Source: Christensenellales bacterium
GTDB lineage: Bacteria > Bacillota > Clostridia > Christensenellales > UBA1431
Assembly (NCBI GenBank): GCA_040772545.1
Contig: JAXGXY010000002.1
Span: 82,841-146,840 of the forward strand
Direction: 5' to 3'
Length of the DNA: 64,000 nucleotides
Below the pieces are notes generated by a model. That model was not told where the DNA came from, did not search any database, and saw only the letters and a program-made list of their open reading frames with translations. The position numbers and the translations under genes were made by a program. Positions 1,458 through 48,936 of the stretch are shown in pieces (the first letter of the stretch is position 1; each line of letters starts with the position of its first letter).

Positions 1458-2518
1458 CGTATCTGGTGACCGGCGGCGCCGGATTCATAGGCTCGAACTA
1501 TGTAAGGCACGTGCTCCGAAACACGGAGGACGTGCGGGTCATCAACGTCGACGCGCTCACGTACGCGGGCAACCTTGAAAACCTTAAGGGGCTCGAAGGC
1601 ATGCCGCGCTACGCCTTTGTCCGGGCGGACATCTGCGACGCGGACGCGCTGGGCGGGGTTTTTTGCCGCAACGACGTGGACGTCGTCGTGCATTTCGCGG
1701 CCGAAAGCCATGTGGACCGCAGCATCGAGGAACCGGACGTGTTCGTCCGCACCAACGTGCTCGGGACGCTGAACCTGCTCAACGCCGCGCTTGGCGCCTG
1801 GGAAAGCGGGGGCATGGAAGGCAAAAAGTTCGTGCACGTCTCCACCGACGAGGTGTACGGGTCGCTGGGGCCGGCGGGGTATTTCACGGAAGAGACGCCG
1901 CTTGACCCGCACAGCCCGTATTCGGCGAGCAAGGCGGCGTCCGATCTGCTGGTCAAGGCCTACGGCGACACCTACGGCCTGCCCGTGAACATCACGCGGT
2001 GCTCCAACAACTACGGCCCGTACCAGTTCCCCGAAAAGCTCATCCCCCTGATGCTCAACAACGCGCTGTGCAACAGGCCGCTGCCGGTATACGGCGAGGG
2101 CCTGAACGTGCGCGACTGGCTCTACGTCGGGGACCACTGCGCGGCCGTCGAACTCGTGGCGCGCAAAGGGAAGCCGGGCGAGGTCTACAACATCGGAGGG
2201 CACAACGAAAAGACCAACATCGAAATCGTGCGCCTTATCCTGGCGGCGCTCAAAGAGATGCTTTTACAAAGCGACCCGCGCCGGGCCCATATCACGGAGG
2301 ACCTCATCACGTTCGTAAAGGACAGGAAAGGCCACGACCTGCGCTACGCGATCGACCCTTCGAAGATCAGGCGCGAGCTGGGCTGGGAGCCGAAGACGGC
2401 GTTTGAAGAGGGCCTTCGCGGCACGATCGCCTGGTACCTCGACAACGAAGACTGGCTCAGGCACGTGACCAGCGGGGAGTACACGCGCTATTACGAGCGC
2501 ATGTACGGCGGCAGATGA
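1451..2518 (+). CDS. rfbB: dTDP-glucose 4,6-dehydratase
   Basis: ATG at 1451 preceded by AGGAGGG; earlier in-frame ATG 1382 rejected. '[14 protein letters not shown]', 'STDEVYG', '[10 protein letters not shown]' are RmlB hallmarks. Confidence 0.92.
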
Positions 2519-2538
2519 CCTTACGGTGGGAGGGGAAC

Positions 2539-3411
2539 ATGAAAGGAATCATACTCGCGGGGGGCGCGGGCACGAGGCTCTATCCCGCGACCATGGCGAT
2601 CTCCAAACAGATCCTGCCCGTTTTCGACAAGCCGATGATCTACTATCCGCTCTCGGTCCTGATGCTGGCCGGAATAAGGGAAGTGCTCATCATCTCGACG
2701 CCGCGCGACATCGGCCTGTTCAAGGACCTGTTCGGGGACGGTTCCCAGCTCGGGATGCGTTTCGCGTACGCCGTACAGCCCGAGCCGAGGGGCCTTGCGG
2801 ACGCGTTCATCATCGGCGAAGCGTTCATCGGAAGCGATCCGGTCGCGCTTATACTGGGCGACAACATCTTCTACGGGCACGGTTTGAGCGGGCTGCTGAA
2901 GAAGACGGCGAAAAACGGCGACTGCGCGACGATCTTCGGGCTTTACGCCAAGGACCCCGCCAGGTTCGGCGTCGTGGAGTTCGACGACGCGGGGAACGTG
3001 GTCTCCATCGAGGAAAAGCCCAAGCGCCCGAAATCGAACTACATCGTTCCCGGCCTGTATTTCTACCCGAACGAAGTGGTCGGGATCGCCAAGAACATAG
3101 AGCCGTCCGACCGCGGCGAGATCGAGATCACCGCCGTGAACAACGAGTTCCTGCGGCTGGGCAGGCTGCGCGTAGAGCTCCTGGGACGCGGCATGGCCTG
3201 GCTGGACACCGGCACGCACGAGAGCCTGATGGACGCGTCCAACTTCGTGGCCGCGATCCAGAACACGCAGGCCGTATACGTGGCCTGCATAGAGGAGATC
3301 GCCTACCAGCAGGGGTACATCGACGCGGAAACGCTCAGGAAAAGGGCGCTGGCCCTCGGGAAGACGGCGTACGCGGAATACATCCTCCGGGTGATCGACG
3401 AGGGGACATAG
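2539..3411 (+). CDS. rfbA: glucose-1-phosphate thymidylyltransferase
   Basis: '[36 protein letters not shown]' is the canonical RmlA N-terminus. ATG 2539 follows GGGAGGGG. Confidence 0.93.
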
Positions 3412-5170: not shown

Positions 5171-8100
5171 ATGGGTACTCTGGATTTATATCTTCAACAG
5201 TTGAAAAAGGACGAGTCGTTTCGGGGGTATTTCGGCCTCGTCCGCATGCACGGGTCCAAGGTCGCATCGGAAATCCTCGAAGGCGATACCATAAAGAAAA
5301 TCACGTACGCTGAGCAGGTGACATACTGCTATGAGACGGCCAGGCGCATCAGCGAGAGGGTGCACGCCGAGGCGGGGACGCGCTTTGTGGGATTAAGGAT
5401 GGGCAACGGCCCGATGTGGCCGGTGATGTTCTGGGGAATCGTCATGGCCGGCCTGAACCCGATCCTTATCGACGTGCGCTACCAGCCGGAACAGGCCGAC
5501 CACCTGCTCCGCCAGGTGAACGCGCTCGCATTGTTCACCGACGACGCTAGCTTCGACGTCGCGGCCTGCCAGTGCATCCCGGTAAGCGAGGTGCTCGACG
5601 ACAGCGGCGGGGAGTGCGCGTACGAGCCCAGATGGGCCACGCATTACGCGCTGTGCACCTCGGGGACGACCGCCACGTCCAAGGTCTACTATTACGAGGC
5701 GAAGACGCTCTGCCAACAGGTGAGCTGCATCGGCTCGCTGACCAAGGACTTCGCCTATACCGACGCGCCCTACAAATCCCTCGCTTTTTTGCCGTTCCAT
5801 CACGTGTTCGGCCTTTTGACCGTCTTTTTCCTCTGCAACCTCTTCGGCGGGACGATCGTGTACCTCAGCGAACTCACGCCCAACGTGATCCTGAACGCCT
5901 GCAGGCGCCACAGGGTCACGCACATCTTCACGGTGCCGCTATTCTGGAACAACATCGCGCAGAACGTGATGCGCAAGGCGAAGCTGGGCGGGCCGGAGCG
6001 CGAGGCCATGCTGCAAAAGCTGATACGCGTAAGCACGATGATCCAGCGGCGCTTCCCGCGGATCGGGCGGAAAATAGTGAGCCGTTTCGTGGCCGGGAAG
6101 GTTCAGGACGCGCTATTAGGGCGCGACATACGCCTCACGATCACGGGGGGCGGGCACATCCTGCCCGAGGCGATGAAGCTCATCAACGTGCTGGGATACC
6201 AGCTAGTAAACGGCTTCGGCATGACCGAGATCGGCATCACCTCGGTGGAGACCACCACCGATTTCGACCTTCGCAACGCCGCCTCGACGGGCAAGCCGAT
6301 GCCCCGCGTGGAATACTACGTCCAGACCGACGAGGGGATCAAAACCGAAGGCGTGGGGGAACTGCTGATAAAGACCGCGTATATCCATACCGGGCGGTAT
6401 ATCGACGGCAAGGACATCGGGTGCGAGGCCGACGATAATGGGTACTTCCACACCGGCGACGTGGGCCGCATCGACAGCACGGGCCGCCTCTGGCTGGAAG
6501 GGCGCCTCAAGGAAGTCATCATCAACGAATCAGGCGAAAACGTGTACCCGGACGAACTCGAGGACGCGTTCCTCGAACTCCCCCACACCGAGCAGATGTG
6601 CGTGACCGGCATCGACACCGGCGGGACATACGAGCAGATCACCCTGGTGCTGCACCTGGGGGACGCGCTCGGCGACAACGAGCGCATCGCCGAGCTGGCG
6701 GAGGCTTTTTCGAAGGCGAACGCGCCGCTGCCCGTATACAAGAAGGTGCAAAGGGTCATCGTCGCGCACGAACCGCTTCCGCTGGCCAGCGGGATCAAGG
6801 TGGCGCGCCAGCGGCTGCGGCGCATGATCGAGCAGGGCGCCGTCGCGTTCGACGAACTGGACGTGCGTGGGGGCCGGCTCATACTGGCCGCGGGGAAGGT
6901 GCAGGCCCCCGAGGTGCTGTCCGCCGGGGTGGAGGAGGCGGACCTCAGGGCCATCAAGGACGAGATCAAGGCCATTTTTGCCGAGGTGCTCTCCCTCAGG
7001 CCCGAGGACATATCCGACACCGCCCATTTCATCAACGACCTGGGGGGCGACAGCCTGTCCAGCCTGGCCGTGTTCATCAAGGCGGAGGAAAAATACGGCC
7101 TGCTCATCAGCGACACGGACTACTACGGCTGCGAGAACGTGAACGACCTGGCCGAACTGATGTACGCAAAGCTCAGGGGGGACAGGGCCGCGCCGCAGAA
7201 GGCCGCTGAGGCGCCGCGGCAGGTCCGCCGCGTCGAGACGTTCGAACAGTCGCGCGAGCACGACGAATTCATGGTCCAGCTCAAGATCGCGGAAGTGGTG
7301 GGGAACCCGTTTTTCATCGCGCACGACTCGGTGCTCAGGGACACGTCGGTCGTGGGCGGCAGGCGCGTTTTCAACTTCGGGTCCTACAACTACCTGGGCC
7401 TGTCGGGGCATCCCGAGACGATGCGCGCCGCCATCGAAGCGATCGGGGAATACGGCACGTCGGCGAGCGGGAGCCGCCTGATCGCGGGCGAGAAGACGCT
7501 TTATAAGGAACTCGAGAAAACGATCGCCGAGTGGAAGCACACCGAGGACGCGCTGGTGCTGGTGGGCGGGCATTCCACCAACGTGACCTTCGTGGGGAAC
7601 TTCTGCAACAAGCGCGACCTGATCCTCTACGACGCGCTCTCCCACAACTCGGTCACGCAGGGCTGCCAGCTCTCCCCGGCCGAGACAAAGGCCTTCCCCC
7701 ACAACGACTACGAAGCGCTCGAAGGCATCCTCAGGGCCAACCGCGACCGGTACGAAAAGGTGCTCATCGTCGTGGAGGGCGTGTACAGCATGGACGGCGA
7801 CATCGCGCCGGTCAAAGAGTTCGTCCGGCTCAAACGCGAGTACGGCGCGTTTTTGATGGTGGACGAGGCGCACTCGAGCTGCGTGATCGGCGAGAAGGGC
7901 GGCGGGGTGGACGAGTACTTCGGGCTGGCGCCCGACGACATCGACATCAAGATGGGGACGCTGAGCAAGGGCCTGGGCACCTGCGGGGGCTATCTGGCGG
8001 GCAAGCGGTCCATGATCGACTATCTGCGCTACAACGTCCCGGGCTTCGTGTTCTCGGTGGGGATCAGCCCGCCGCTTGCCGCGGCGGCCAAGCGGGCGAT

Positions 8101-8446
8101 CGAGCTGCTGGGGGAGAACCCGCAACTGGTGAAGAACCTGCAGGCGAACATCCGCGCGTTCGTGGAGGCCGCCAAGGCGAAGGGGTTCAACACCTGCCTC
8201 GCGAAGGAATCGTCCATCATCCCGATATTCGTCGGCAGGGACGAGGACGCGGCGCTGCTCAGCCGCCTGATGCTCGAAAACGGCGTGTTCGTGCCGCCGG
8301 CCGTGTTCCCTGCGGTCCCCCGCAACCAGGCGCGGCTCAGGTTCTGCGTTACCAGCGAGCACAACGAAGGGCAGATAAAAACAGCCCTCGACACGCTCGA
8401 GAGGCTCGCGGGAGAACAGGGCATCAACCTGACAAAAACGGCCTGA
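5171..8446 (+). CDS. tri-domain fusion: AMP-dependent acyl ligase (FAAL/acyl-ACP synthetase-like) + acyl carrier protein + alpha-oxoamine synthase (8-amino-7-oxononanoate synthase / serine palmitoyltransferase family)
   Basis: ATG 5171 with GGAGG 7 nt upstream. Adenylation motifs: 'TSGTTATSK', 'GFGMTE', 'HTGDVGRIDSTGRLWLEGRLKE'. ACP motif 'DLGGDSLSSL' (DNA ~7041-7061). AOS part: 'NFGSYNYLGLSGHP', 'VEGVYSMDGD', 'VDEAHS', PLP-lysine motif 'GTLSKGLG' (~7954-7977). Confidence 0.85.
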   Translation: MGTLDLYLQQLKKDESFRGYFGLVRMHGSKVASEILEGDTIKKITYAEQVTYCYETARRISERVHAEAGTRFVGLRMGNGPMWPVMFWGIVMAGLNPILIDVRYQPEQADHLLRQVNALALFTDDASFDVAACQCIPVSEVLDDSGGECAYEPRWATHYALCTSGTTATSKVYYYEAKTLCQQVSCIGSLTKDFAYTDAPYKSLAFLPFHHVFGLLTVFFLCNLFGGTIVYLSELTPNVILNACRRHRVTHIFTVPLFWNNIAQNVMRKAKLGGPEREAMLQKLIRVSTMIQRRFPRIGRKIVSRFVAGKVQDALLGRDIRLTITGGGHILPEAMKLINVLGYQLVNGFGMTEIGITSVETTTDFDLRNAASTGKPMPRVEYYVQTDEGIKTEGVGELLIKTAYIHTGRYIDGKDIGCEADDNGYFHTGDVGRIDSTGRLWLEGRLKEVIINESGENVYPDELEDAFLELPHTEQMCVTGIDTGGTYEQITLVLHLGDALGDNERIAELAEAFSKANAPLPVYKKVQRVIVAHEPLPLASGIKVARQRLRRMIEQGAVAFDELDVRGGRLILAAGKVQAPEVLSAGVEEADLRAIKDEIKAIFAEVLSLRPEDISDTAHFINDLGGDSLSSLAVFIKAEEKYGLLISDTDYYGCENVNDLAELMYAKLRGDRAAPQKAAEAPRQVRRVETFEQSREHDEFMVQLKIAEVVGNPFFIAHDSVLRDTSVVGGRRVFNFGSYNYLGLSGHPETMRAAIEAIGEYGTSASGSRLIAGEKTLYKELEKTIAEWKHTEDALVLVGGHSTNVTFVGNFCNKRDLILYDALSHNSVTQGCQLSPAETKAFPHNDYEALEGILRANRDRYEKVLIVVEGVYSMDGDIAPVKEFVRLKREYGAFLMVDEAHSSCVIGEKGGGVDEYFGLAPDDIDIKMGTLSKGLGTCGGYLAGKRSMIDYLRYNVPGFVFSVGISPPLAAAAKRAIELLGENPQLVKNLQANIRAFVEAAKAKGFNTCLAKESSIIPIFVGRDEDAALLSRLMLENGVFVPPAVFPAVPRNQARLRFCVTSEHNEGQIKTALDTLERLAGEQGINLTKTA

Positions 8447-8478
8447 CGGCCGGGGCGGGACAACGACGACGGGGGTGT

Positions 8479-9468
8479 ATGAGCATGGGCTGTGTGATGG
8501 TGGCCGGCGGCGCCGGATACATCGGGAGCCACGCCGTGCGCGAACTGCGGCGGGCGGGACGGTGCGTCGCCGTGCTCGACAACCTGAGCACCGGGCACCG
8601 GGCCGCCGTGGAGGGCGCCGAGTTTTTAGAGGCGGACATCCGGGACACGGACGCCGTGTACGAGGCGCTAAAGGCCTATGAGGCGGAGGCGGTGATGCAT
8701 TTTGCCGCCGACAGCCGGGTGGGCGAGTCGCAGGTTGACCCCGAAAAATACTACGGCAACAACGTCTGCGGCACGTTCAGCCTGCTCTCGGCCATGCGCC
8801 GCGCGGGCGTGAACAGGCTGGTGTTTTCCTCGACAGCGGCGGTGTACGGGGACGCGAAAGGCCTCATCACGGAGGAGTACCCGAAACGGCCGGCCAACGT
8901 ATACGGCCGCACCAAGTGGATGATCGAGCAGATGCTCGCGGACTTCGACGCGGCCTACGGCCTGAAGGCCGTCGCGCTGCGCTACTTCAACGCCGCCGGC
9001 GCGGACCCGGAGGGCGGCATCGGCGAGGACCACAGGCCCGAGACGCACCTGATCCCGCTGGTGCTGCGGGCCGCGGTCAACAGGGAGCCGCTGACGGTGT
9101 TCGGGGACGACTACCCGACGCGCGACGGCACCTGCGTGCGCGACTACATCCACGTCAGCGACCTCGCCTCGGCGCACCTATTAGCGCTCGAAGCGCTGGA
9201 GGGCGGGGAGGGGAGCCGCGCGTACAACCTCGGCAACGGGAAAGGGTTTTCCGTGCTGGAGGTCATACGGGCGGCAGAGCGCGTGACCGGGAGGAAGGTG
9301 CCCTTCGCCGTCGGCGCGCGCAGGCCCGGCGACCCGCCGAGCCTGGTGGCCGACAGCTCGGGCATCGTGCGCGAACTGGGGTACGCCCCGCGTCACGCCG
9401 CCCTCGAGGACATCATCTTAACGGCCTGGCGGTTCCATCAAAGCCACGAGAACGGGTACGGGGACTAA
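8479..9468 (+). CDS. galE: UDP-glucose 4-epimerase
   Basis: C-terminal 330 codons of the 645-aa ORF. 'VMVAGGAGYIGSH', 'SSTAAVYG', 'YGRTKWMIE', 'LRYFNAAGA', 'DGTCVRDYIHVSDLA'. Start is 8479, 8485 or 8497 (ambiguous). Confidence 0.9.
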   Translation: MSMGCVMVAGGAGYIGSHAVRELRRAGRCVAVLDNLSTGHRAAVEGAEFLEADIRDTDAVYEALKAYEAEAVMHFAADSRVGESQVDPEKYYGNNVCGTFSLLSAMRRAGVNRLVFSSTAAVYGDAKGLITEEYPKRPANVYGRTKWMIEQMLADFDAAYGLKAVALRYFNAAGADPEGGIGEDHRPETHLIPLVLRAAVNREPLTVFGDDYPTRDGTCVRDYIHVSDLASAHLLALEALEGGEGSRAYNLGNGKGFSVLEVIRAAERVTGRKVPFAVGARRPGDPPSLVADSSGIVRELGYAPRHAALEDIILTAWRFHQSHENGYGD

Positions 9469-39832: not shown

Positions 39833-40189
39833 GTGTACGGCAATGCCGAACGGATCCTGCTGCTCAACAGGAAGGGGTATTCCAACAGGGCGATCGCAAG
39901 GGAACTGGGCATCTCCCGCGAGAGCGTAAACAAAGCCGTGCTTTCGATGGGCGCGGTGTCGCCGTTTGCCAGGCCGGTGCGCGTGATGCCGAACCCCGTG
40001 GAAAAAGAGCGCGCGCTTCGCGGCGGGGACGTGCTCGCGTATTTTTCGGGGGGCATCGACGATGTCCCGGTATCCCTCAGGGCGGTGGTGGTGAGGCAGT
40101 ACAGGCGGTTTCTGCACTGCCGGGTGGAGGCGCTGCAGGACGGGCAATGGGTCTACGTCTACGACCAGTGCTTCGCCCGGCACGGCTAG
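39833..40189 (+). CDS. helix-turn-helix DNA-binding protein (resolvase-HTH / sigma region-4-like)
   Basis: GTG start after GGGGAGGG. 'RILLLNRKGYSNRAIARELGISRESVNKAV' is an HTH. 118 aa. Confidence 0.6.
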   Translation: MYGNAERILLLNRKGYSNRAIARELGISRESVNKAVLSMGAVSPFARPVRVMPNPVEKERALRGGDVLAYFSGGIDDVPVSLRAVVVRQYRRFLHCRVEALQDGQWVYVYDQCFARHG

Positions 40190-40204
40190 GAAGGGGGCCC
40201 GGGC

Positions 40205-40708
40205 ATGGACTTCGAGCAGGAGTTGCGGCGGTACCGCGAAGCGAAGGGCATGGTCGCTTTCATCGAGAACGAACTCGAACTGCTTAAGGGGATGAAGGAA
40301 GACAGGGGCTTTCGGGACGAGGGCATCGAGGCCGGGTCCCTGGGCGGCGCGGCGCATAGCTTGGCGAAGGGCGCTATGAAGCTGTCGCGCGTGGAACACT
40401 GCGGCCTGCGGCAGGCCGCGGGCGGGGGCGGGGAGGAACTCGACGCGGAGATACGCTCCCTGGAGCACAGGCTGAGGCATCTGCGGTACCGCATCCGAAG
40501 GGTGGAGGCGATGCTGTGCGCGCTTACCCAGCGGGAGCGCCTGGTCGTGCAGAAATTCTACATCGAGGGGCACCCGTGGAGCGACGTGGTCGCCCTGTAC
40601 AGGCAGGAGATGCCCTCGCCCAGGGAGGCGGATGCGCTCAAGGCGACGCGCAACGCGGCGATGGACAAAATGCGCCAGATATTCCTGCGCTGCAAGCTGC
40701 CGGCATAG
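40205..40708 (+). CDS. sigma-70 region-4-like small regulator (mobile-element/phage type)
   Basis: 167 aa. N-terminal coiled-coil-like region, then C-terminal 'LTQRERLVVQKFYIEGHPWSDVV...ATRNAAMDKMRQIF'. Confidence 0.6.
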   Translation: MDFEQELRRYREAKGMVAFIENELELLKGMKEDRGFRDEGIEAGSLGGAAHSLAKGAMKLSRVEHCGLRQAAGGGGEELDAEIRSLEHRLRHLRYRIRRVEAMLCALTQRERLVVQKFYIEGHPWSDVVALYRQEMPSPREADALKATRNAAMDKMRQIFLRCKLPA

Positions 40709-40794: not shown

Positions 40795-41175
40795 TCAGCA
40801 GCGTTTTCTCCTTCTTATCCCGGCGTCCTGGACGATGTTGAGCGCCTCGCCGAAGCGCTGGAAATGCACGACCTCTCGCTCCCTGAGGAACAGCAGCGGA
40901 TTGCGCACGTCCGGGTCGGCGGTAAGGCGGATCAGGTGCTCGTACGTCGCGCGCGCCTTCTGCTCTGCGGCCATGTCCTCGGTAAGGTCGGCGACCGGGT
41001 CGCCGGTGCAGGCGACGTAGGAAGCCGTGAAAGGGACGCCGTTCGGGTCGCAGGGGAAGAGCCCGAAGTCGTGCTCGGTGTAGAACCCTTCCATCCCCGA
41101 GGCGCGGATGCCCGCGACCGACGCGCCGCGCATGCACTGGTGGATCATCGTCCCTATCATCTCCCAGTGGGCCAA
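40795..41175 (-). CDS. cotJC: spore coat protein CotJC (manganese-catalase family), 3' segment (codons 66-191) of a split gene
   Basis: 'LAHWEMIGTMIHQ...NGVPFTASYVACTGDPVADLTEDMAAEQKARATYEHLI...FLREREVVHFQRF' aligns with B. subtilis CotJC residues ~66-189 as I recall them. No start codon or RBS of its own. Confidence 0.85.
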   Translation of the reverse strand: MAHWEMIGTMIHQCMRGASVAGIRASGMEGFYTEHDFGLFPCDPNGVPFTASYVACTGDPVADLTEDMAAEQKARATYEHLIRLTADPDVRNPLLFLREREVVHFQRFGEALNIVQDAGIRRRKRC

Positions 41176-42776
41176 TTCTTCGGTGCCGCGTTATTGTCGG
41201 TGAGGATGCGGTCCGGGAGCCTGGGGTACAGCACGAGTTCGAACGCGCCCTTAAATACGCGCGCCCGCCCGTTGCCGCCGCGCACGGCCTTATAATAGTC
41301 TATCCGTTCGACGAGGCTCCTGAGCAGGCTGTTTTTCGACATGACGGAGGGCGCGAGCGCATACGCGGCGGCGATGTCTTCGGCGCGCGCGCGCCGGTCC
41401 CGCAGCGCTGTTTCGCGCGCCCGCGCGGCCTGCAGCTGGCGGCGGAGTTCTGTTTCCTGGCGCCGGAGTTCCTCCGTTTGCTCAAGCAGCGCTTCTTTGC
41501 GTTTTTCAAACGTTTCGGCGTCGTATACGCCCTGTTCGAGCAGGTCGTGCGCGGCGGCGCGCTGCGCCTCGAGGCGCGCGAGGCCTTCCCCGATGCGCCT
41601 GAGCGCCTGCGCGGCCGCCGCTTCGACCGGCGCAGGGCCGGTATCGCCTTTAGCTCCGGCGCGTAGCCTGTACCCCCGCAGCCATGTTTTAAGCGAGCGC
41701 AGCACGGCCGATTCGACGAGGCGCAGTTCCGAGCTCACGTTCGCGCAGGCGGCGTCCGGGCAGACGAGCGCGTCCGGCGCGTTTTTGTACGGCTTCCTGC
41801 ACATGCGCCCGCCGCAGACCCCGCAATAAACGAGGCCGGCGAGCGGGTTTTTCAGGGACCCGCCGCGCGTGCCCCGCGGATGCCCGCCGGACAGGTACTC
41901 CTGCGCCCGGTCCCAGGCTTCGCGGCCGATCAGGGGCGGGTGGAGGCCGTCCACCACGATGCAGCCGCCGTTGCGGGGCCGGCTGACCGCCGCGCCGCCG
42001 TCTTTTGCTCTCTTTACCGCCGGGCGGCCCATGTAGCGTATCTTCCCGGCGTAGACGGGGTTTTTGAGGAGCGGCTGGAGCATGGACGGCGTCCAGCGCG
42101 CGGCCCGCCGCGGCCTGATGCCCAGGTCGTTGAGCCTGCGGGCGAGGCGGGCGACGCCCAGCCGCCCTTCGGCCCCGTCGCCCTTTGTATACAGCTCGAA
42201 GATGAGCTTCACGGCCGGGGCGGCGGCCGGGTCCGGGGCGAGCGTGTAGCCTTTCTGGCCGTCGAGCTTCACGCGGACGTAGCCGAACGGCGCGACGCTG
42301 CCGGTGTACTTCCCCTCCAGGGCGGAGGCGCGCCGGCCGCGCTGGAGCCGGCGGTTGATCGCCCTGTACTCGCGGCGGCTCATGAACAGGCCGAACTCGA
42401 AATACTCCTCGTCGAACTCGTCGTCGGGGTCGTAGGTCTTCGCGGGCGTGACGATCTTCGTGTGGGAGAGGGAGAACGCGCGCGCGATGACGCCCTGGTC
42501 GATCGTGTCGCCGCGCGCGAGACGCTCGATCTCCATCACGAGCACGCCGTCCCACAGGCCGCCTTCCACCTCGGAAAGGAGCCGACGCATCACGGGCCGC
42601 GCTGCGATGGTCTCGCCGGAGACGATCTCGCGGTAGGTTTTGGACACGGGCAACCCCATGCGTTCGGCGAGGGAAACGAGCGCGGCCCGGTGGCGCGCGA
42701 GGGTCTCGCCTTCGCCGCGCGCCTCGGCCTCGGCGTCCGCCCTGGATTTTCGAAGGTAGATGCAGTAGTTTGCCAT
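41157..42776 (-). CDS. large serine recombinase, SprA-like
   Basis: ATG 42776. 'YLRKSRADAE..TL..H...L', 'EIVSGETIAARP', 'VLVMEIERLARGD', 'IVTPAKTYDP', 'FEFGLFMSRREY', Zn-ribbon 'CGVCGGRMCRK...CPDAAC', long coiled coil. 539 aa. The stop codon lies beyond the element edge. The 100-codon N-terminal extension in the ORF track covers a repeat and is rejected. Confidence 0.88.
   Translation of the reverse strand: MANYCIYLRKSRADAEAEARGEGETLARHRAALVSLAERMGLPVSKTYREIVSGETIAARPVMRRLLSEVEGGLWDGVLVMEIERLARGDTIDQGVIARAFSLSHTKIVTPAKTYDPDDEFDEEYFEFGLFMSRREYRAINRRLQRGRRASALEGKYTGSVAPFGYVRVKLDGQKGYTLAPDPAAAPAVKLIFELYTKGDGAEGRLGVARLARRLNDLGIRPRRAARWTPSMLQPLLKNPVYAGKIRYMGRPAVKRAKDGGAAVSRPRNGGCIVVDGLHPPLIGREAWDRAQEYLSGGHPRGTRGGSLKNPLAGLVYCGVCGGRMCRKPYKNAPDALVCPDAACANVSSELRLVESAVLRSLKTWLRGYRLRAGAKGDTGPAPVEAAAAQALRRIGEGLARLEAQRAAAHDLLEQGVYDAETFEKRKEALLEQTEELRRQETELRRQLQAARARETALRDRRARAEDIAAAYALAPSVMSKNSLLRSLVERIDYYKAVRGGNGRARVFKGAFELVLYPRLPDRILTDNNAAPKNWPTGR
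41160..41208. other. left recombination junction (attL-type: B arm + core + P' arm)
   Basis: ...CCCAGTGGGCCAA|TTCTTC|GGTGCCGCGTTATTGTCGGTGAGGAT. The core TTCTTCGGTGCC (41176-41187) matches 48148-48159 at 11/12 positions. Confidence 0.7.
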
Positions 42777-42843
42777 CGTTTCACCGCCCGCTAAGCTTTG
42801 TATATTTGTATTTCGCGGGGGCGGCGGATATGGCGGGTACGAT

Positions 42844-42980
42844 GCCGACAAACCTGTGGTTTGTCGGCAATTTTCCGGCAGGTTGAAACGCGCTTTAAGG
42901 CGCGTTTCTTTGCCGATCCTGACGCACATGTCACCAGGATCGGATTGAAGCTCAGGGGGCTTCGGCCCCCCTGAACCCCC
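42844..42980 (+). repeat. family-1 modular four-hairpin element, copy 3 (divergent, with compensatory stem changes)
   Basis: GCCGACAAACCtgtGGTTTGTCGGC; GAAACGCGCtttaaGGCGCGTTTC; CGATCCTGacgcacatgtcacCAGGATCG; GGATTGAAGC; GGGGGCttcgGCCCCCCTGAACCCCC. Confidence 0.8.
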
Positions 42981-43078
42981 AGGGGAAGTTACCGTTTGCC
43001 ATGTTGCCCGGGGTGAAAGGCTGACGATTACCGGTCGGACACATTTGAATAAACCTTCCGTTGCATAAAAACGCACAC

Positions 43079-43303
43079 CTACAAATAGCGTTTCAATACT
43101 TCAACAAGGTCATCTTTATAATTTTCCAACTCATAAATATTGCTGATCGATATCTTTGTATCTTTTTTGTTCTCGTCGGGAATTATGAGGATTCGTTGTT
43201 TTTCTTTAATCATAAGCCGGCATATCCATTTCCGGACATTGTTCTTGTAATTTATAGCGATATAGGACGCGGTGTCCTTGTAGCCGATGTCATCCATGGG
43301 CAC
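43079..43303 (-). CDS. hypothetical protein, probably a gene fragment (AT-rich patch)
   Basis: 74-aa ORF 'MPMDDIGYKDTASYIAINYKNNVRKWICRLMIKEKQRILIIPDE...'. No convincing RBS seen, and composition differs from its surroundings. Confidence 0.3.
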   Translation of the reverse strand: MPMDDIGYKDTASYIAINYKNNVRKWICRLMIKEKQRILIIPDENKKDTKISISNIYELENYKDDLVEVLKRYL

Positions 43304-43603
43304 GAGTTCACGAAGAAGGTTTTTGATGATAAAATACTACTTCACAACACAAAAAAACGATTGCCAGATATTTCATGTGCGCATGGCATGGCGGAGGATA
43401 TATAATTTAACGGTACGAATAAGAAGGCTCGCGCGGCCTCAGACGGAAGGAGCGCGGGCCTGACCGCGGCATGATCGGCTGCAGCGATCGAACCGACGAC
43501 AAATACGGGCCATGCGTAGTGTTTAAACGCAGGTTGAGGATTGCATTAACGTTTTAACATATGGTATCCTGAATTAATATATTAACTCATAAGAGGGGAT
43601 TTT

Positions 43604-44425
43604 ATGAAAAAATCGATGGTGGTGGTCATTGCAGTGCTGATGCTGGCGCTTCTGCTGGCGGGCTGCAAACAGACTGAGGGCACGGACGAGGGGCAACAGA
43701 CGCCCGAGAAAGTGACGATCGGCGGAGTGGAAGACCTTGAAGGCAGGAAGATCGCGGTGCAGGAAGGCACCACGGGCGACATCCTTGCGACCGATATCAA
43801 GGACGCGAAGATCTCGCGGTTCAAAAAGGCGGTCGACGCGGGCATCGAACTGAAGAACGGCAAAGCGGACGCGGTGATCCTCGACGAACAGCCTGCGAAG
43901 AAGATCGTCGAGAACAACCCCGAACTGATGATCCTCAAGGAGAACTTCGTCAAGGAGGACTACGCGATCGGCGTACGCAAGGGCGAGACGGAGCTGTTAG
44001 ACAGCATCAATAAGACCCTCGAGCGCATCAAGGAGGACGGCACCTTCCAGACCTTCCTCGACGCCTACATCCCCGAGACCGGCGAGAGGAAGGCGCTCCC
44101 CGAAAGGACGGCCACGAACTATGACGAAACGATCGTGATGGGGACGAACGCCGAATTCGAGCCTTTCGAGTACATCGAAGGCGACCAGATCGTCGGTTTC
44201 GACGTCGAGGTCGCAAAAGAGATCGCCGCGGACCTGAAGCAGAACCTCAAGATCGAGAACATGAACTTCGACAGCCTCATCAACGCGCTGGTCTCCGGGA
44301 AGATCGACATGATCATCGCCGGAATGACGGTAACGGAAGAGCGCAAGCAGAGCATCGATTTCTCCGAACCGTACTATACGTCAACGCAGGTCATCATCAT
44401 CAGGAAGGAAAGCCTGAAGCAATAG
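43604..44425 (+). CDS. amino-acid ABC transporter substrate-binding lipoprotein
   Basis: Signal peptide plus lipobox 'LALLLAGCK'. 'KIAVQEGTTGD', 'DAVILDEQPA', 'GTNAEFEPFEY', 'DMIIAGMTVTEERKQSIDFSEPYY' are family-3 SBP motifs. Confidence 0.85.
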   Translation: MKKSMVVVIAVLMLALLLAGCKQTEGTDEGQQTPEKVTIGGVEDLEGRKIAVQEGTTGDILATDIKDAKISRFKKAVDAGIELKNGKADAVILDEQPAKKIVENNPELMILKENFVKEDYAIGVRKGETELLDSINKTLERIKEDGTFQTFLDAYIPETGERKALPERTATNYDETIVMGTNAEFEPFEYIEGDQIVGFDVEVAKEIAADLKQNLKIENMNFDSLINALVSGKIDMIIAGMTVTEERKQSIDFSEPYYTSTQVIIIRKESLKQ

Positions 44426-44440
44426 CATACGATAGTACCG

Positions 44441-45181
44441 ATGCGGGACAGCGTAAGACTGTCCCGCTTTTTCGGTGCCGGCCAGGGGGGATGCGGCTTG
44501 TTCGACGAAATATACAGGAACATCATCTACCAGGACAGGTGGCTGTACCTGCTCAAGGGGCTGTGGGTCACCGTCGAGGTCACGTTGTTCGCGATCCTTT
44601 TGGGGACCATACTCGGCATGATCCTGGCACTGATGCGGATATCGAACTTCAAACTCTTTCGAATAAGGATCCTCGAAAAGATTTCGTCCTTCTACATAAC
44701 GATCATCCGGGGGACGCCGCTGATGGTCCAGCTGCTGATCATCTATTTCGTGGTGTTCGCGTCGGTGGACATCGACAAGGTGATCGTCGCGGTCATCGCG
44801 TTCGGCCTCAACAGCGCGGCCTACGTCGCGGAGATCATCCGCGGAGGCATCCTTTCGGTGGACAAGGGGCAGACGGAGGCCGGGCGCTCGCTGGGCCTGA
44901 GCTACACGCAGACGATGCGCCACATCGTCATGCCGCAGGCCATAAAGAACGCGCTGCCCGCGTACACGAGCGAGTTCATCGTCCTCATCAAGGAGACGGC
45001 CATCGTCGGCTACATCGCGCTCGAGGATTTGACCAAGGTGGGGGACACCATACGCAGCAGGACGTTCTCCGCGCTTGTCCCCCTGCTGACCGTCGCGCTC
45101 ATCTATCTGCTTCTGACGGGAGTGCTCGCGAAACTGTTCATGAGGCTGGAGAGGAGACTGAGAAGAAGTGATAACCGTTAA
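44441..45181 (+). CDS. amino-acid ABC transporter permease (His/Glu/Gln/Arg/opine family)
   Basis: '[16 protein letters not shown]', '[35 protein letters not shown]' is the EAA loop. Start uncertain (44441, or a downstream TTG ~44498). Confidence 0.85.
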
Positions 45182-45896
45182 GCACCTGAGCAAGGCATTC
45201 GACGGCCAGCTCGCGGTCGACGACGTTTCCATGGAAATAAACAAAGGGGACAAGATCGTCATCGTCGGGCCGTCGGGGTCGGGGAAGAGCACGTTCCTGC
45301 GCTGCCTCAACCTGCTCGAGGTCCCGACGGGCGGGGAAATCTTCTTCGAGGGACAGCGTATCACGGACCCCAAAACGGACATCAACGAGGTCCGCGCGAA
45401 GATGGGGATGGTGTTCCAGCAGTTCAACCTGTTCCCGCACCTGACGGTGCTCGGCAACATCACGCTGGCCCCCGTCAGGCTGAAGCGGCAGACGAAACAG
45501 GAGGCCGAGGAAACGGCGAACCGGCTATTGGATCGCGTCGGGCTCACGGATAAGCGCGACGCCTATCCCGCGCAACTCTCCGGCGGGCAGAAGCAGAGGA
45601 TCGCGATCGTGCGGGCACTGGCGATGAACCCGGACGTGATGCTCTTCGACGAGCCGACGTCCGCGCTCGACCCCGAGATGGTAGGCGAGGTGCTCGACGT
45701 GATGCGCGAACTCGCCGAGGAAGGCCTGACGATGGTGGTCGTCACGCACGAGATGGGCTTTGCCAAGCAGGTCGGCACGCGGGTGACGTTCATGGACGAG
45801 GGCAGGATCAAGGAGGAAGCGAGCCCCGAGGAGTTCTTCTCGAACCCGAAGCACCCGAGGCTCAGGGATTTCCTTTCGAAGGTCCTGAACGCGTAA
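45168..45896 (+). CDS. amino-acid ABC transporter ATP-binding protein
   Basis: GTG start. 'GPSGSGKST' (Walker A), '[15 protein letters not shown]' (signature), '[11 protein letters not shown]' (Walker B). Confidence 0.92.
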
Positions 45897-45925
45897 ACGC
45901 GGCCGGCGCGAGACGCGACTATGCG

Positions 45926-46186
45926 TTACAGGCCGGTAACATGTTTCGCGCGGTCGTAATCCTTTCGTCTCACGTAGACTTTGTACTCGATTGTCGCGGT
46001 GCCACGCCCGAACCTTCCGAGAGTTGCGCCTGGCGGTGGTACGCCCAGGTCCCTGAACCTGTAGCTGTAGTCGATGCCGTTGGCTTCAAGCGCCTGCCCG
46101 ACCTTGCTGAACCTTTCCATTGAACGGGTAACAATAAGTTCACTTCGGTTAAATATGGTAATCATTGTCCAACGCAAACACCGCAA
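45926..46186 (-). CDS. hypothetical small protein (DUF2007-like?)
   Basis: 86-aa ORF; the likely start is internal ('MITIFNRSELIV...'). The family assignment is from memory only. Confidence 0.35.
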   Translation of the reverse strand: MRCLRWTMITIFNRSELIVTRSMERFSKVGQALEANGIDYSYRFRDLGVPPPGATLGRFGRGTATIEYKVYVRRKDYDRAKHVTGL

Positions 46187-46403
46187 TCAATAGATTGATG
46201 AGAAATCTCGCGGTTTCCTCATCCACCTGAAATGACTGGCTAACCTTTTCCGGCATTTCTCTGTCTTGCTTGCCGTACGTGTCAATCTGTAGATACTTTT
46301 TGTCGTTTCCCTCAAACACAGTATACGTGCTGCTTACTATTTCGTGTATGTTGTTGCGTTGCTTTTCGATTCGAACAAACTTATTCGCATTTATCTGTGC
46401 CAT
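46149..46403 (-). CDS. hypothetical protein / N-terminal gene fragment (AT-rich patch)
   Basis: 84-aa ORF 'MAQINANKFVRIEKQRNNIHEIV...YLQIDTYGKQDREMPEKVSQSFQVDEETARFL'. It ends where composition switches back to GC-rich and overlaps the next ORF by 38 nt. Confidence 0.35.
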   Translation of the reverse strand: MAQINANKFVRIEKQRNNIHEIVSSTYTVFEGNDKKYLQIDTYGKQDREMPEKVSQSFQVDEETARFLINLLIAVFALDNDYHI

Positions 46404-46434
46404 ATCGAATCTCCCAAATAACGGGTTCTCTGTT

Positions 46435-46656
46435 TCATTTCAACCTGTCGATTATCTCGTTGGACCTATCTATTGACTCGTTGGACTCATCTATTAGTCG
46501 TTGCACCTCTTTATACTCTTCACTTTCTTCGTATAGTCTTTTTCCTTCACTTTGGGCGTTCATCCAAAACAGAGTGAGCACTCCAAATACAGCAGCAACG
46601 CACGCCACCACAATAACAGCGATTTTCCATCCTTTCATCCCGAGCCCTCCTTTCAA
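46435..46656 (-). CDS. hypothetical small membrane-anchored protein
   Basis: 73 aa. TM helix 'WKIAVIVVACVAAVFGVLTLFW', then an acidic coiled-coil-like tail. Confidence 0.4.
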   Translation of the reverse strand: MKGGLGMKGWKIAVIVVACVAAVFGVLTLFWMNAQSEGKRLYEESEEYKEVQRLIDESNESIDRSNEIIDRLK

Positions 46657-46865
46657 TGCCAGTTTATACTATGCTAGGAGGGGAGTAAACCGGCGGCTAG
46701 GGCAGGGGCATCCAGTGAGTAATATGCATCATTCATTTTTGGTTCTATTTATACTAATTCCATACGCGATCGTCTATTTCCTTTTTATGTGATGGATTGC
46801 ATTGGTGTAAAATACCGCAAAATGGACGTGCCGCCGGTCATAGACTGTTTCTGGGGCGGTTTCAA

Positions 46866-47060
46866 TTGAAAAAACCGAACATCGTCGAAACATATGTGTA
46901 CGAGGACGGGCCCGTCGCGCATATCGCAGACGACGCATACAGGGAAAAGACGCCGGAGGAACTGCGCGTCGCGTGGAAGACGGCGCAGGCCGCCGCGTTC
47001 GCCTGCCTGGAAGCGGGGCAAAGCGGGCCGCCTGAGCCGGAGCAAAGCGGGGACGCGTGA
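46866..47060 (+). CDS. hypothetical small protein
   Basis: ~64-aa ORF from TTG 46866 ('LKKPNIVETYVYEDGPVAHIADDAYREKTPEELRVAW...'). A strong terminator follows directly. The start is uncertain. Confidence 0.3.
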   Translation: MKKPNIVETYVYEDGPVAHIADDAYREKTPEELRVAWKTAQAAAFACLEAGQSGPPEPEQSGDA

Positions 47061-47074
47061 AGCCGCGCTTTGGT

Positions 47075-47106
47075 GCGCCGGCGGCGCTTTGCCGGCGCTT
47101 TTTTTA
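47075..47106 (+). terminator. intrinsic terminator
   Basis: GCGCCGGCggcgctttGCCGGCGCTTTTTTTATT. Confidence 0.75.
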
Positions 47107-47409
47107 TTGGACAAGCATCGGGGGGCGGATTTTCGTGCGGTTAAGCGTCCGGCGTCCGGCAGTTTTGCGGGATGCCGGGCGCAGGGCGGCAGGCGGACGC
47201 CCGGCAAAGCGAACGCACGGCTGGAAGCAAAAATTTGTAAACAATGGTATTTTTGCCCGGGATAAGATCGCGGCAAATGGATACACTTAACATAACCTTT
47301 TCGGTATGTACCGGCATTCGCGGCGCACGGAGCCGTTTATTGCGGCCATATCCTGAAGGATGAACGAAGAATAAATGCAATAACACGAAATCGAAGGACA
47401 GGAGGCCGA

Positions 47410-48009
47410 ATGAAAAGACCGGGATACAGGCTGCCCGCGATATACTTATCGATCGCGTTCTGCCTGTTAACCATAGGGATGACGGAGCAGGCGGGCGCGC
47501 GGGGACAGGCGGCGGCGGTGTTCAACCACGTGAGCGGAATTTTGGGCAGCGTTATCGAAACGCCGGAGCCGACGGCGACGCCGGCGTCCGTACGGACGCA
47601 AACGCCGAAGACGGCGAAGCCGACGCCCGTACGGACGCAAACGCCCAAGCAGGCGCCCGCGCAGGCATATTCGAAGAAAGACCTCGACCTGCTCGCCAGG
47701 GTCGTATACGCCGAGGCGGGGAGCGACTGGTGCAGCGACGAAATGCAGCTTCTCGTCGCGAACGTCGTGATCAACCGCATGCGCGACCGGCGGTTCCCGG
47801 ACACGCTCCGGGGCGTGGTCTACCAGCGGGGGCAGTACGCCTGCGCATACAAGCTGGGGCGCGTGAAGCCCAACGCGCGCGCGGTGAAAAACGCGAAGCG
47901 TGTGCTGGACGGGGAGCGGTTCTGCCCGGCCAAAGTGGTTTTCCAGAGCGAGTTCAGGCAGGGGAAGGGCCTGTGGAAGAAGGTCGGGAATCAGTACTTT
48001 TGTTATTGA
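47410..48009 (+). CDS. cell wall hydrolase, SleB/CwlJ (Hydrolase_2) family, secreted
   Basis: RBS GGACAGGAGG. Signal-like 'LPAIYLSIAFCLLTIGM'. Pro/Thr linker with a 'VRTQTPK' repeat. 'LLARVVYAEAGSDWCSDEMQLLVANVVINRMRDRRFPDTLRGVVYQRGQYACAY' is the SleB catalytic-domain pattern. Confidence 0.8.
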   Translation: MKRPGYRLPAIYLSIAFCLLTIGMTEQAGARGQAAAVFNHVSGILGSVIETPEPTATPASVRTQTPKTAKPTPVRTQTPKQAPAQAYSKKDLDLLARVVYAEAGSDWCSDEMQLLVANVVINRMRDRRFPDTLRGVVYQRGQYACAYKLGRVKPNARAVKNAKRVLDGERFCPAKVVFQSEFRQGKGLWKKVGNQYFCY

Positions 48010-48034
48010 GGGGAAATGGGGGCAAGTTGAAAGA

Positions 48035-48068
48035 AGCCCCGCGGGCGGTGTCTGCGGGGCTTTCTATT
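48035..48068 (+). terminator. terminator after the SleB-like gene
   Basis: AGCCCCGCgggcggtgtctGCGGGGCTTTCTATT. Confidence 0.65.
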
Positions 48069-48126
48069 GCCGATAAGGCTTATTAGTGATGAATGCTGTA
48101 TAATACCGGTCTTCCCCCTTATTTCC

Positions 48127-48175
48127 CCGACAATAATGCGGTACCGGTTCTTCTGTGCCTATGTCGGTGAGGATC
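48127..48175. other. right recombination junction (attR-type: P arm + core + B' arm)
   Basis: CCGACAATAATGCGGTACCGG|TTCTTC|TGTGCCTATGTCGGTGAGGAT. The P arm is the inverted repeat of 41182-41200. Confidence 0.7.
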
Positions 48176-48342
48176 GACTTGCAGGCGTCGTTGGGCATGG
48201 AATAGCGCTGGTTGAGGTAGCGGATGCCCGCGGCGAGCTCGCTGTCGGGGCCGCCGTACTGGGCGAGGAGCGCCTTGGCCATGCGCAGGTCGGGTTTCCG
48301 GATCCGTACGGGGAACTGAAGCTTTTTCTCATATATCCACAT
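48148..48342 (-). CDS. cotJC: spore coat protein CotJC, 5' segment (codons 1-65) of a split gene
   Basis: RBS AAGGAGG. 'MWIYEKKLQFPVRIRKPDLRMAKALLAQYGGPDSELAAGIRYLNQRYSMPNDACKSILTDIGTEE' is the CotJC/Mn-catalase N-terminus. As integrated, the frame reads 27 unrelated codons into the element and stops at 48064. Confidence 0.88.
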
Positions 48343-48361: not shown

Positions 48362-48610
48362 CTACATTTCCCACGGCCAGGGCGACTTCACCCAGGTACG
48401 GCATTCGCCCGCGGGCTGCAGCCCGTTTCCCAGCAGGGGCCCGTATTTGCAGCTGTAATCGTCCATCAACTGACGCAGGCGGCAGGCGCAGATGTCGTAA
48501 TCCTCCATGGCGCGGGCGTCGTCGGGGTGGGTATCCAGGAAGAGCCGGAGTTCGAGACACGCGAACTCGGTCGCTCGTATTTCGTTGAGCATGTGTTGCT
48601 TGTTACGCAT
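48362..48610 (-). CDS. cotJB: spore coat protein CotJB
   Basis: 82 aa. 'ATEFACLELRLFLDTHPDDARAMEDY', 'KYGPL', C-terminal 'SPWPWE' is the CotJB signature. RBS AAGGAGG. Confidence 0.88.
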   Translation of the reverse strand: MRNKQHMLNEIRATEFACLELRLFLDTHPDDARAMEDYDICACRLRQLMDDYSCKYGPLLGNGLQPAGECRTWVKSPWPWEM

Positions 48611-48632: not shown

Positions 48633-48936
48633 CTATCGGGAGACCAGGCAGGGGAACAGCGTGCCGTGCAAAAGCGCCTCGCGTGGATTGAACATGCGCC
48701 CGTAAGGCTGGTCGCGCACTGAGGCCTGTGCGAGCGGGAGCGAGGGGCACGGGTCTTCTTCCTGCATGTACAGGCAGGCGCAGGGGTCGGCGTACGCGCC
48801 CCGCCCTTTGCACACTTTCGCTTCGCCGGCGTTAAGCGCCCGTTCGTCCCTGTCGTACAGTGCGGGGCCGCAAATATAAGCACCGTGGCCGCAAACGGAA
48901 CACGCGTAATCATAATCCATATACATAACGTTAAGA
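48633..48936 (-). CDS. cotJA: spore coat-associated protein CotJA
   Basis: C-terminal 101 codons of the 538-aa shadow ORF. ATG 48936 after GGAGG. 'LAQASVRDQPYGRMFNPREALLHGTLFPCL' is the CotJA motif. Has a Cys-rich N-terminal extension. Confidence 0.75.

Follow-up and report, generated by a model that had tools for sequence, protein, structure and literature searches.

A cotJC-splitting element in a Christensenellales bacterium and the attachment sites of its large serine recombinase

Introduction

In a Christensenellales bacterium (assembly GCA_040772545.1, contig JAXGXY010000002.1) the spore-coat gene cotJC lies in two pieces about 7 kb apart, and the locus raises the question of whether this gene has been broken for good or is interrupted by an element that its own recombinase can remove. 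We analysed a window of 64,000 nucleotides (positions 82,841 to 146,840 of the contig); all coordinates below are those of the window, and loci from elsewhere are referred to by L numbers. We consider it likely that the two junctions in cotJC are the attL and attR sites of a 6,972-bp non-phage element, placed there by its own large serine recombinase (LSR), and that excision restores the gene.

It is well established that LSRs excise intervening elements from sporulation genes during sporulation; skin (sigK), SPbeta (spsM), vfbin (spoVFB), gin (gerE) and yin (yabG) are examples. A passage of 10.1101/2021.11.22.469490 that cites Abe et al. 2013 already names cotJC as an integration target, and the preprint of Galperin et al. 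2022 mentions a skin-like element in cotJC of Laceyella sacchari. Both this type of sporulation switch and its target gene are thus in the literature; the lineage described here has not yet been described.

Results

The split gene and its in silico excision

Two copies of the hexanucleotide TTCTTC, at 41176-41181 and 48148-48153, mark the junctions at a spacing of 6,972 bp. The right copy lies at the end of the 5′ part of cotJC (48148-48342, minus strand; codons 1-65, ending ...SILTDIGTEE) and the left copy at the start of the 3′ part (40795-41181, minus strand), which reads EE/LAHWEMIG... through the stop codon, the slash marking the junction. Deletion of 6,972 bp yields an in-frame open reading frame (ORF) of 191 codons for a Mn-catalase/CotJC protein (...SILTDIGTEE/LAHWEMIG...), which is full length, matches Pfam Mn_catalase (E 1e-53) and is collinear with intact orthologues (90% and 84% identical proteins). 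The insertion is inside the coding sequence; cotJB (48362-48610, minus strand) is directly upstream of cotJC and is preceded by cotJA (48633-48926, minus strand) in a cotJA-cotJB-cotJC operon. In B. subtilis, the cotJ genes are expressed in the mother cell under sigma-E.

The intervening element occupies 41179-48150, with boundaries that are ambiguous within the 6-nt core. A 13-nt direct repeat close to both junctions was also considered as the place of excision and was rejected, because its use would remove 6,967 bp and shift the frame of cotJC. Searches of the 7 kb against Pfam, NCBIfam and PHROGs returned no prophage module (capsid, tail, terminase or lysis); the matches comprised an integrase, an ATP-binding cassette (ABC) transporter, a SleB-like hydrolase, an endonuclease remnant and small ORFs only. 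The element is non-phage and resembles gin in that respect. Its GC profile is mosaic.

The recombinase

The left end of the element encodes a large serine recombinase (41157-42776, minus strand), whose length of 539 aa, given in a preliminary description made from the sequence alone, was confirmed. The protein combines a resolvase-type catalytic domain (Pfam Resolvase PF00239, E 4e-14), a Recombinase domain (PF07508, E 7e-17) and a Zn_ribbon_recom match (PF13408) that is marginal, at 25.9 bits against a cut-off of 25.3, together with a Cys cluster CGVCGG...CPDAAC; it also matches a PHROG integrase family (E 1e-92). The closest solved relative is the SPbeta integrase SprA/YokA, aligned over residues 3-490 (E 1e-43), and the motif YLRKSRAD, which holds the catalytic Ser11, aligns with YLRRSRQD of that enzyme. 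A coiled coil is probably present too, as the alignment with the SPbeta integrase runs on to residue 490 and covers the coiled-coil region. Among viral contigs, a scan with the recombinase found relatives of 36-38% identity only.

The stop codon of the gene falls past attL, within cotJC. Homologues end in ...LYPRL, and the last ~19 residues in the window (PDRILTDNNAAPKNWPTGR) are a read-through of the P arm, across attL and into cotJC.

Alignment of the regions upstream of the recombinase genes gave no conservation beyond the 90% relative. A perfect 12-nt inverted repeat, TGCCGACAAACC-ACA-GGTTTGTCGGCA, is found at 42843-42871, 70-95 nt upstream of the recombinase start; it is kept in the 90% variant and holds the attP-arm word TTGTCGG twice. 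As a binding site of the recombinase this word found no support (14 occurrences in the window against 8 expected), and the repeat could be a terminator or an operator.

Anatomy of the attachment sites

The junction strings of the preliminary description were recovered at 41163-41207 for attL and 48127-48175 for attR, where the string itself spans 48127-48174. As delimited here, attL (41157-41207) combines a weak B-type half from the 3′ side of cotJC (41157-41177) with the recombinase-proximal P-type half (41178-41203), and attR (48124-48174) combines the far-end P-type half (48124-48149, minus strand) with the B-type half from the 5′ side of cotJC (48150-48170). Both sites are drawn to the end of a shared 13-mer, which reaches 41207 at attL and 48174 at attR. 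The attL junction recurs in L020-L022, L019 and L023, and the attR junction in L020 and L024.

It had been proposed that the element-side arms join into a near-palindromic attP and the host-side arms into an asymmetric attB inside cotJC, and both parts of this reconstruction held. The two 19-nt element-side arms match as inverted repeats at 17/19 positions, exactly as first counted. With arms one base longer, 18/20 positions match around the 6-nt centre GTTCTT, and 20/26 overall when the palindrome is centred on TC. Elsewhere in the native 64-kb window the best palindrome of equal geometry scores 15/20, and the maximum over 30 shuffled windows is 16/20, so that the attP palindrome is far beyond chance. 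On the host side, the best symmetry centres of attB score 12/25 and 11/24, neither of them on the crossover, and the crossover centre itself scores 8/21. In gene sense, the attB junction of the excised form would read GGCACAGAAGAATTGGCCC (longer context, ATAGGCACAGAAGAATTGGCCCACTGG) and the attP junction of the circle GGCACCGAAGAACCGGTACC (longer context, AACGCGGCACCGAAGAACCGGTACCGCATT). The domains of the recombinase, the in-frame rejoining and the symmetry of attP all agree with the two junctions being the attL and attR sites of an LSR, as the preliminary description had it.

The length of junction identity varies among the elements, from 4 nt in L027/L028 to 6 nt in the window and 9-10 nt in L030 and L025, which is compatible with a 2-nt crossover. 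L027/L028 share GAAT only, which overlaps the GAAGAA of the window solely in its second GAA; the crossover should therefore lie within TTC (41176-41178 and 48148-48150), if homologous enzymes cut homologously. The dyad axis picks TC as the probable crossover dinucleotide (GA in gene sense), at 41177-41178 in the left core, where the symmetry centre of attP also lies, and at 48149-48150 in the right core. TC is non-palindromic, as a serine integrase requires. We regard the identity of the sites, their geometry and the position of the crossover as well supported by the sequence comparisons.

Recognition motifs in the half-sites

We numbered half-site positions outward from the central dinucleotide. 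An inner motif, CKGTRCC, stands at positions 4-10 and is common to both P halves and the 5′-side B half of cotJC. An outer motif, TGTCGG(T/G)GA, follows at positions 18-26 of the P halves, as TGTCGGTGA in the recombinase-side half (41195-41203, plus strand) and as TGTCGGGGA in the far-end half (48124-48132, minus strand). In the 5′-side B half, TGTCGGTGA stands at positions 13-21 (48162-48170, plus strand), inside the L-T-D-I codons of cotJC. By its type, the outer motif would be that of the zinc-ribbon domain. The 5′-side B half thus equals the adjacent P half minus positions 11-15.

The shift between the two kinds of half-site was measured by comparing the outer part of the 5′-side B half with both P halves in four elements, at shifts from -2 to +10. 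A shift of +5 was best, with 50/72 matches; the next best reached 35/72, and the remaining shifts averaged ~19. The family consensus TrTCnGTnA occupies positions 18-26 in P halves and 13-21 in B, and the P half of the Provencibacterium element (L039) fits it perfectly. This spacing has been seen before. In the structure-based model of the LI integrase on attP, the zinc-ribbon-domain motif moves by 5 bp, from 16-24 in attP to 11-19 in attB (PMC3783163), and cryo-electron microscopy (cryo-EM) of the SPbeta integrase confirmed the principle with a 4-bp shift, the authors predicting 5 bp for most sites (PMC11722253). The anatomy of the att sites is textbook for the family and not new.

The 3′-side half of cotJC is weak, with only A1, A2, G5, G6 and C9 in common with the far-end P half. 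Farther from the centre of this half, an ATCGG-like word was considered as the outer motif and was not convincing. Asymmetric attB sites have a precedent in the gin element (PMC5595907).

An identical run between the P′ and B′ arms had been pointed out in the preliminary description; it exists, at 13 nt rather than the 12 nt counted there (TGTCGGTGAGGAT, at 41195-41207 and 48162-48174). Some 3,000 random pairs of 60 x 60 nt from the window never shared a word longer than 12 nt. The accompanying interpretation, in which the element would hold a partial mimic of displaced cotJC sequence, found no support in that form: nothing has been displaced; the B′ arm is still in place, and both halves of cotJC are intact and under purifying selection. 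The similarity is better explained, from the comparison of sites, as a recognition code of the recombinase that P-type and B-type half-sites would share. The far-end P arm has no cotJC-like neighbour and yet bears TGTCGGGGA at the same distance. In the 90%-identical variant element the P′ word is GTCGGTGACGAT, and its identity with B′ breaks right after TGTCGGTGA; in distant relatives (L025, L027, L030) only motif positions are common to P′ and B′, always in the 5-bp register. Four extra identical bases beyond the motif in the window (GGAT) have a chance of ~1/256.

An empty site and related elements

A metagenomic contig from a related organism (L017) carries an intact cotJABC without the element. 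Its CotJC is 90% identical, and its neighbours are those of the window (the 167-aa and 118-aa ORFs described below, tryptophanyl-tRNA synthetase and threonine synthase). Its DNA and the reconstructed attB can be aligned over 86 nt with no gap and with substitutions as the only differences, and this collinearity with an unoccupied syntenic cotJC bears out the reconstruction.

The exact element, or variants of 89-93% identity, was found in several assemblies, always integrated. More distant recombinases, of 66% (L025), 63% (L026, L027-29), 54% (L030) and 51% identity (L039, Provencibacterium), all directly precede the 3′ part of cotJC. Wherever both ends are visible, these elements split cotJC at the same codon, GTEE/L. 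Four attP sites could be rebuilt from both junctions, and the comparison with homologous recombinases that the preliminary description had pointed to is in agreement: their best symmetry centre is identical (15-18/24; next best 10-12), and the four corresponding attB sites have background symmetry only.

The cargo of the relatives is wholly different: a GGDEF protein, a cold-shock protein and a HAD hydrolase; thiamine-salvage genes and a transporter; ParE/RelB; lysins; or, in a larger element, an abundance of helix-turn-helix (HTH) regulators. Around a recombinase/att module that stays constant, the cargo has been exchanged completely.

At least three distinct LSR attachment sites are present in cotJC (L030, L004, L005, L015, L034). 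They map to codons ~29-32 (YGGP), 62-66 (GTEE/L, the family of the window) and 76-79 (MVYK/LTKD, in Laceyella/Hazenella); the thermoactinomycete loci recovered were L005, L015 and, from Hazenella, L004. Two different LSR elements share one cotJC in L030 (675-9145), with a 461-aa LSR at 1711-3096 and a 528-aa LSR at 7229-8815, and in L034/35 an LSR of 43% identity adjoins the 5′ fragment of cotJC in the opposite orientation. All attP sites reconstructed in this multi-site set are palindromic.

Selection on the split gene and the recombinase

Between occupied genomes, the split cotJC copies have ratios of nonsynonymous to synonymous substitution rates (dN/dS) of 0.07-0.12 at dS 1.0-1.35, indistinguishable from comparisons with intact genes (0.06-0.13). 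The recombinase has dN/dS 0.15-0.45. For the same pairs, dS of the recombinase and of the host cotJC are similar in size (~1 both), which, as a comparison of two genes only, is compatible with long vertical co-residence of element and host. The empty L017 is closer to the window (dS 0.45) than are the occupied relatives (dS 1.0-1.35); recent evolution has therefore either emptied or filled the site precisely.

A candidate directionality factor and its promoter

Serine integrases need a recombination directionality factor (RDF) to recombine attL with attR. Those of sporulation elements are small: CD1234 has 72 aa, no known motifs and is regulated by sigma-E and SpoIIID (PMC5025042), and the 42-aa GirX was picked out as the one gene that is conserved across gin elements (PMC5595907). 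An all-against-all comparison of the ORFs of the window, L025, L026, L027 and L028 elements left one gene besides the recombinase that is common to all five, in spite of their differing cargo. We regard this gene (46866-47060, plus strand; 64 aa, TTG start) as a candidate RDF on the strength of its distribution. It carries the motif IVETYxxxDGxxVHIADDAYRDKTPEEL and is predicted to fold into a β-hairpin followed by a long helix (predicted local distance difference test, pLDDT, 83).

The family is very rare and unannotated (12 clusters in 5.8 billion proteins), and Pfam, PHROGs and NCBIfam gave nothing informative. Distant members occur in another cotJC-splitting LSR element (L034/35), in the lysogeny-switch region of a Clostridium prophage whose LSR is 56% identical to that of the window (L036), and beside an HTH gene in a phage with no LSR in view (L037/38); an LSR is therefore present in 2/3 of the distant contexts examined.

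A sigma-E-like promoter motif, GCAAAAT-N15-CATAGACT (46817-46846, plus strand), ends 20 nt upstream of the candidate start. L025, L026 and L027 have a similar upstream block, and the phage copy in L037 reads TCATATT-N15-CATAGGCT; the distance of the -10-like box upstream of the start is 26-27 nt for the window, L025, L026 and L037, and 16 nt, counted from the annotated start, for L027. The block fits the mapped SigE promoters of C. difficile, among them spoIID (TTATAAA-N14-CATATACT) and CD1234, the skin RDF (GTATAAG-N15-CATATTTT; PMC7438776 Table S6).

The region upstream of cotJA has only a 5/7 match at -35. A perfect sigma-E-like match, TAATATA-N14-CATATGTT at 43556-43584 (minus strand), lies ~780 nt upstream of the recombinase start and faces that gene and the endonuclease remnant; as its surroundings are a divergent promoter region rich in AT, it may have arisen by chance.

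Cargo and flanking genes

The element carries a complete polar-amino-acid ABC transporter (43604-45896, plus strand), with binding protein, permease and ATPase, and a SleB-like cell-wall hydrolase (47410-48009, plus strand). The elements of the window, L026 and L027 have a conserved 86-aa ORF in common (45926-46186, minus strand, in the window; 33-49% identity), which was not detected in L025 and has no family match. In a low-GC patch, a 74-aa ORF (43079-43303, minus strand) is the C-terminal remnant of a 351-aa HSDR_N-type endonuclease; this enzyme is full length in the 90% variant (L019:2817-3872), where it is 98.6% identical over the remnant, so that the element in the window must have undergone a deletion.

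Two ORFs downstream of cotJC (39833-40708, plus strand) encode a 118-aa protein, for which the HTH matches are weak, and a 167-aa protein without a family match. Their synteny is kept at every related locus, occupied or empty, and they are therefore host genes and not part of the element.

Discussion

Proposed mechanism and alternatives

In the mechanism that we propose, subunits of the recombinase would read each half-site through the inner motif CKGTRCC and the outer motif TrTCnGTnA. Placed at positions 18-26 in both P halves, the outer motif would make attP a palindrome; in the 5′-side B half it would be read at 13-21, the other B half being weak. Strands would be exchanged at TC inside the shared TTCTTC, and recombination of attL with attR would release a circle carrying attP and leave a codon-perfect cotJC (GTEE/LAH). 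From skin, SPbeta and gin we infer the timing of excision, in the sporulating mother cell, as well as its trigger, a small directionality factor for which the 64-aa ORF behind the sigma-E-like promoter is the candidate. In the forespore genome the element would stay integrated and so be inherited.

Several observations weigh against this mechanism or parts of it. A scan of metagenome contigs of the Joint Genome Institute (JGI) with a degenerate 36-nt pattern for attB, attP, attL and attR found no excision product; it returned one more integrated copy (L023/L024), with neither a circle junction nor an identical empty site. The exact reconstituted CotJC is absent among 15 billion proteins, as is the 581-aa recombinase that would be read across attP. 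In the 3′-side B half of cotJC the shift search brought out no register for the outer motif, and the related elements are homologous, so that their att sites are not fully independent observations. For the candidate RDF, comparison with solved structures and known RDFs gave no match, either by sequence or by fold, and the gene was not detected in L030 (the sequences of L019 and L039 are incomplete). The sigma-E consensus is that of C. difficile, transferred to an uncultured Christensenellales, and of its three hits in the window the one at ~31391 (minus strand) is spurious, with no gene downstream. With one hit in three spurious, the pattern is weak as a stand-alone predictor, and the evidence for the promoter is accordingly its conservation and not its mere occurrence.

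An alternative is that the element is an immobile relic, with a recombinase and att sites that no longer work and a cotJC that is split for good, whether left as a pseudogene or supplanted by a paralogue. Public assemblies hold no identical empty site, attP circle junction or reconstituted protein, and decay is evident elsewhere in the element, in the endonuclease that is reduced to 74 of 351 aa. We nevertheless hold a relic to be very improbable, given that both halves of cotJC are intact and strongly constrained (dN/dS 0.07-0.12 at dS of at least 1), that the recombinase ORF is intact in every copy and constrained as well, that the attP arms retain their palindrome and motifs across relatives of 51-90% identity, and that a close relative has a clean empty site. 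The same constraint bears on another possibility, in which the att sites are genuine LSR sites of an ordinary integrative element or phage satellite that excises for horizontal transfer, cotJC being a tolerated target: a split gene under selection requires regular reconstitution. Genes for transfer, replication and packaging are absent from the element, the divergence of the recombinase is about that of the host cotJC (dS ~1), compatible with vertical co-inheritance, the candidate RDF has a conserved sigma-E-like promoter upstream, and all studied elements in mother-cell sporulation genes excise at sporulation (PMC5025042, PMC5595907, PMC4191935). Points in favour of an ordinary mobile element are that prophage-like elements (L036, L039) have recombinases of the same clade, that cargo differs completely between relatives and that a near relative has an empty site; on balance we consider it unlikely.

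A further alternative, which takes up the mimic of the preliminary description, is that the P′ arm is captured or copied host DNA, left by an imprecise ancestral excision or by gene conversion between attL and attR, and not a recognition motif. The 13-nt identity does run 4 nt past the motif shared with the other P arm, and it matches synonymous variants of the host itself (GGAT, where L017 has GTAC). Capture would leave the far-end arm unexplained, which has the motif at the same distance with no cotJC-like neighbour; the identity stops immediately past the motif in the 90% variant, L025, L027 and L030 share motif positions only and always in the 5-bp register, and the 4-nt extension has the ~1/256 chance given above. 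We judge capture to be quite improbable and retain the shared recognition code as the explanation.

Comparison with known systems

Among known systems, skin (sigK; SpoIVCA in B. subtilis, CD1231 with the RDF CD1234 in C. difficile) is alike in being an LSR element that splits a mother-cell sporulation gene, whose ORF is restored by recombination of attL with attR, and in having att sites whose short common core is flanked by imperfect inverted repeats; in C. difficile, its small 72-aa RDF under sigma-E gives cell-type specificity (PMC5025042). The element in the window differs in targeting cotJC and not sigK, in its size of only 7 kb and in its metabolic cargo in place of prophage-like genes; its candidate RDF is unrelated in sequence, and the system is known from sequence alone. 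The gin element (gerE of B. cereus; GirC with the RDF GirX) is likewise a non-prophage intervening element, and the logic by which its RDF was found is reused here. Its attG, the equivalent of attP, is a 27-bp imperfect inverted repeat with the cleavage dinucleotide in the middle, and its attB is without symmetry (PMC5595907). Target gene and recombinase lineage differ, GirX has 42 aa, and the activity of gin was shown in vitro.

SPbeta (spsM; SprA/YokA with the RDF SprB/YotN) shares the catalytic motif YLRxSRxD and the reconstitution of a sporulation gene. Cryo-EM of its integrase places DNA-binding domain 2 (DBD2) nearer to the centre when it sits on an attB half than when it sits on an attP half (PMC11722253). 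It is an active phage of 134 kb with a 4-bp shift, whereas the best register in the window is 5 bp, the value predicted for most LSRs. The integrase of Listeria phage A118 (LI; Rutherford et al. 2013) shows the same modular recognition, with the recombinase-domain (RD) motif in the same register and the zinc-ribbon-domain (ZD) motif 5 bp further inward in attB; in the LI model the minimal attB is ~10 bp shorter than attP (PMC3783163). The outer motif is at 18-26 and 13-21 in the window and at 16-24 and 11-19 in LI, and only one attB half of the window is clear. In Laceyella sacchari an LSR element, with an attP that is palindromic too, likewise splits cotJC; the Laceyella/Hazenella site, MVYK/LTKD, is ~12 codons downstream, the recombinase is ~40% identical, and the hosts belong to the class Bacilli (Thermoactinomycetaceae).

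Implications

For annotation, the two cotJC pieces would be treated as one functional gene and not as pseudogenes, and the apparent C-terminal tail of the recombinase as read-through of attL. For the mechanism of serine integration, the element offers a testable crossover dinucleotide and a clean natural example of the attB/attP rule, in which the inner motif stays the same and the outer one moves by 5 bp, replicated in five diverged relatives.

The recombinase clade is widespread in uncultured Clostridia of the gut and of anaerobic digesters and is devoted to a single codon of cotJC. Every pairing of recombinase and att sites, perhaps together with its RDF, is a candidate for use as an orthogonal integration system. 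More tentatively, and as a proposal that we put somewhat below even chances, the 64-aa ORF may found a new family of sigma-E-driven RDFs and form, with the recombinase clade, a minimal switch cassette, diverging in step with its Clostridia hosts (dS >1) through a total turnover of cargo, with cotJC as a multi-site hotspot holding at least three LSR sites. If this is true, the RDF family and the cotJC hotspot would provide a natural panel of orthogonal recombinase/att/RDF sets.

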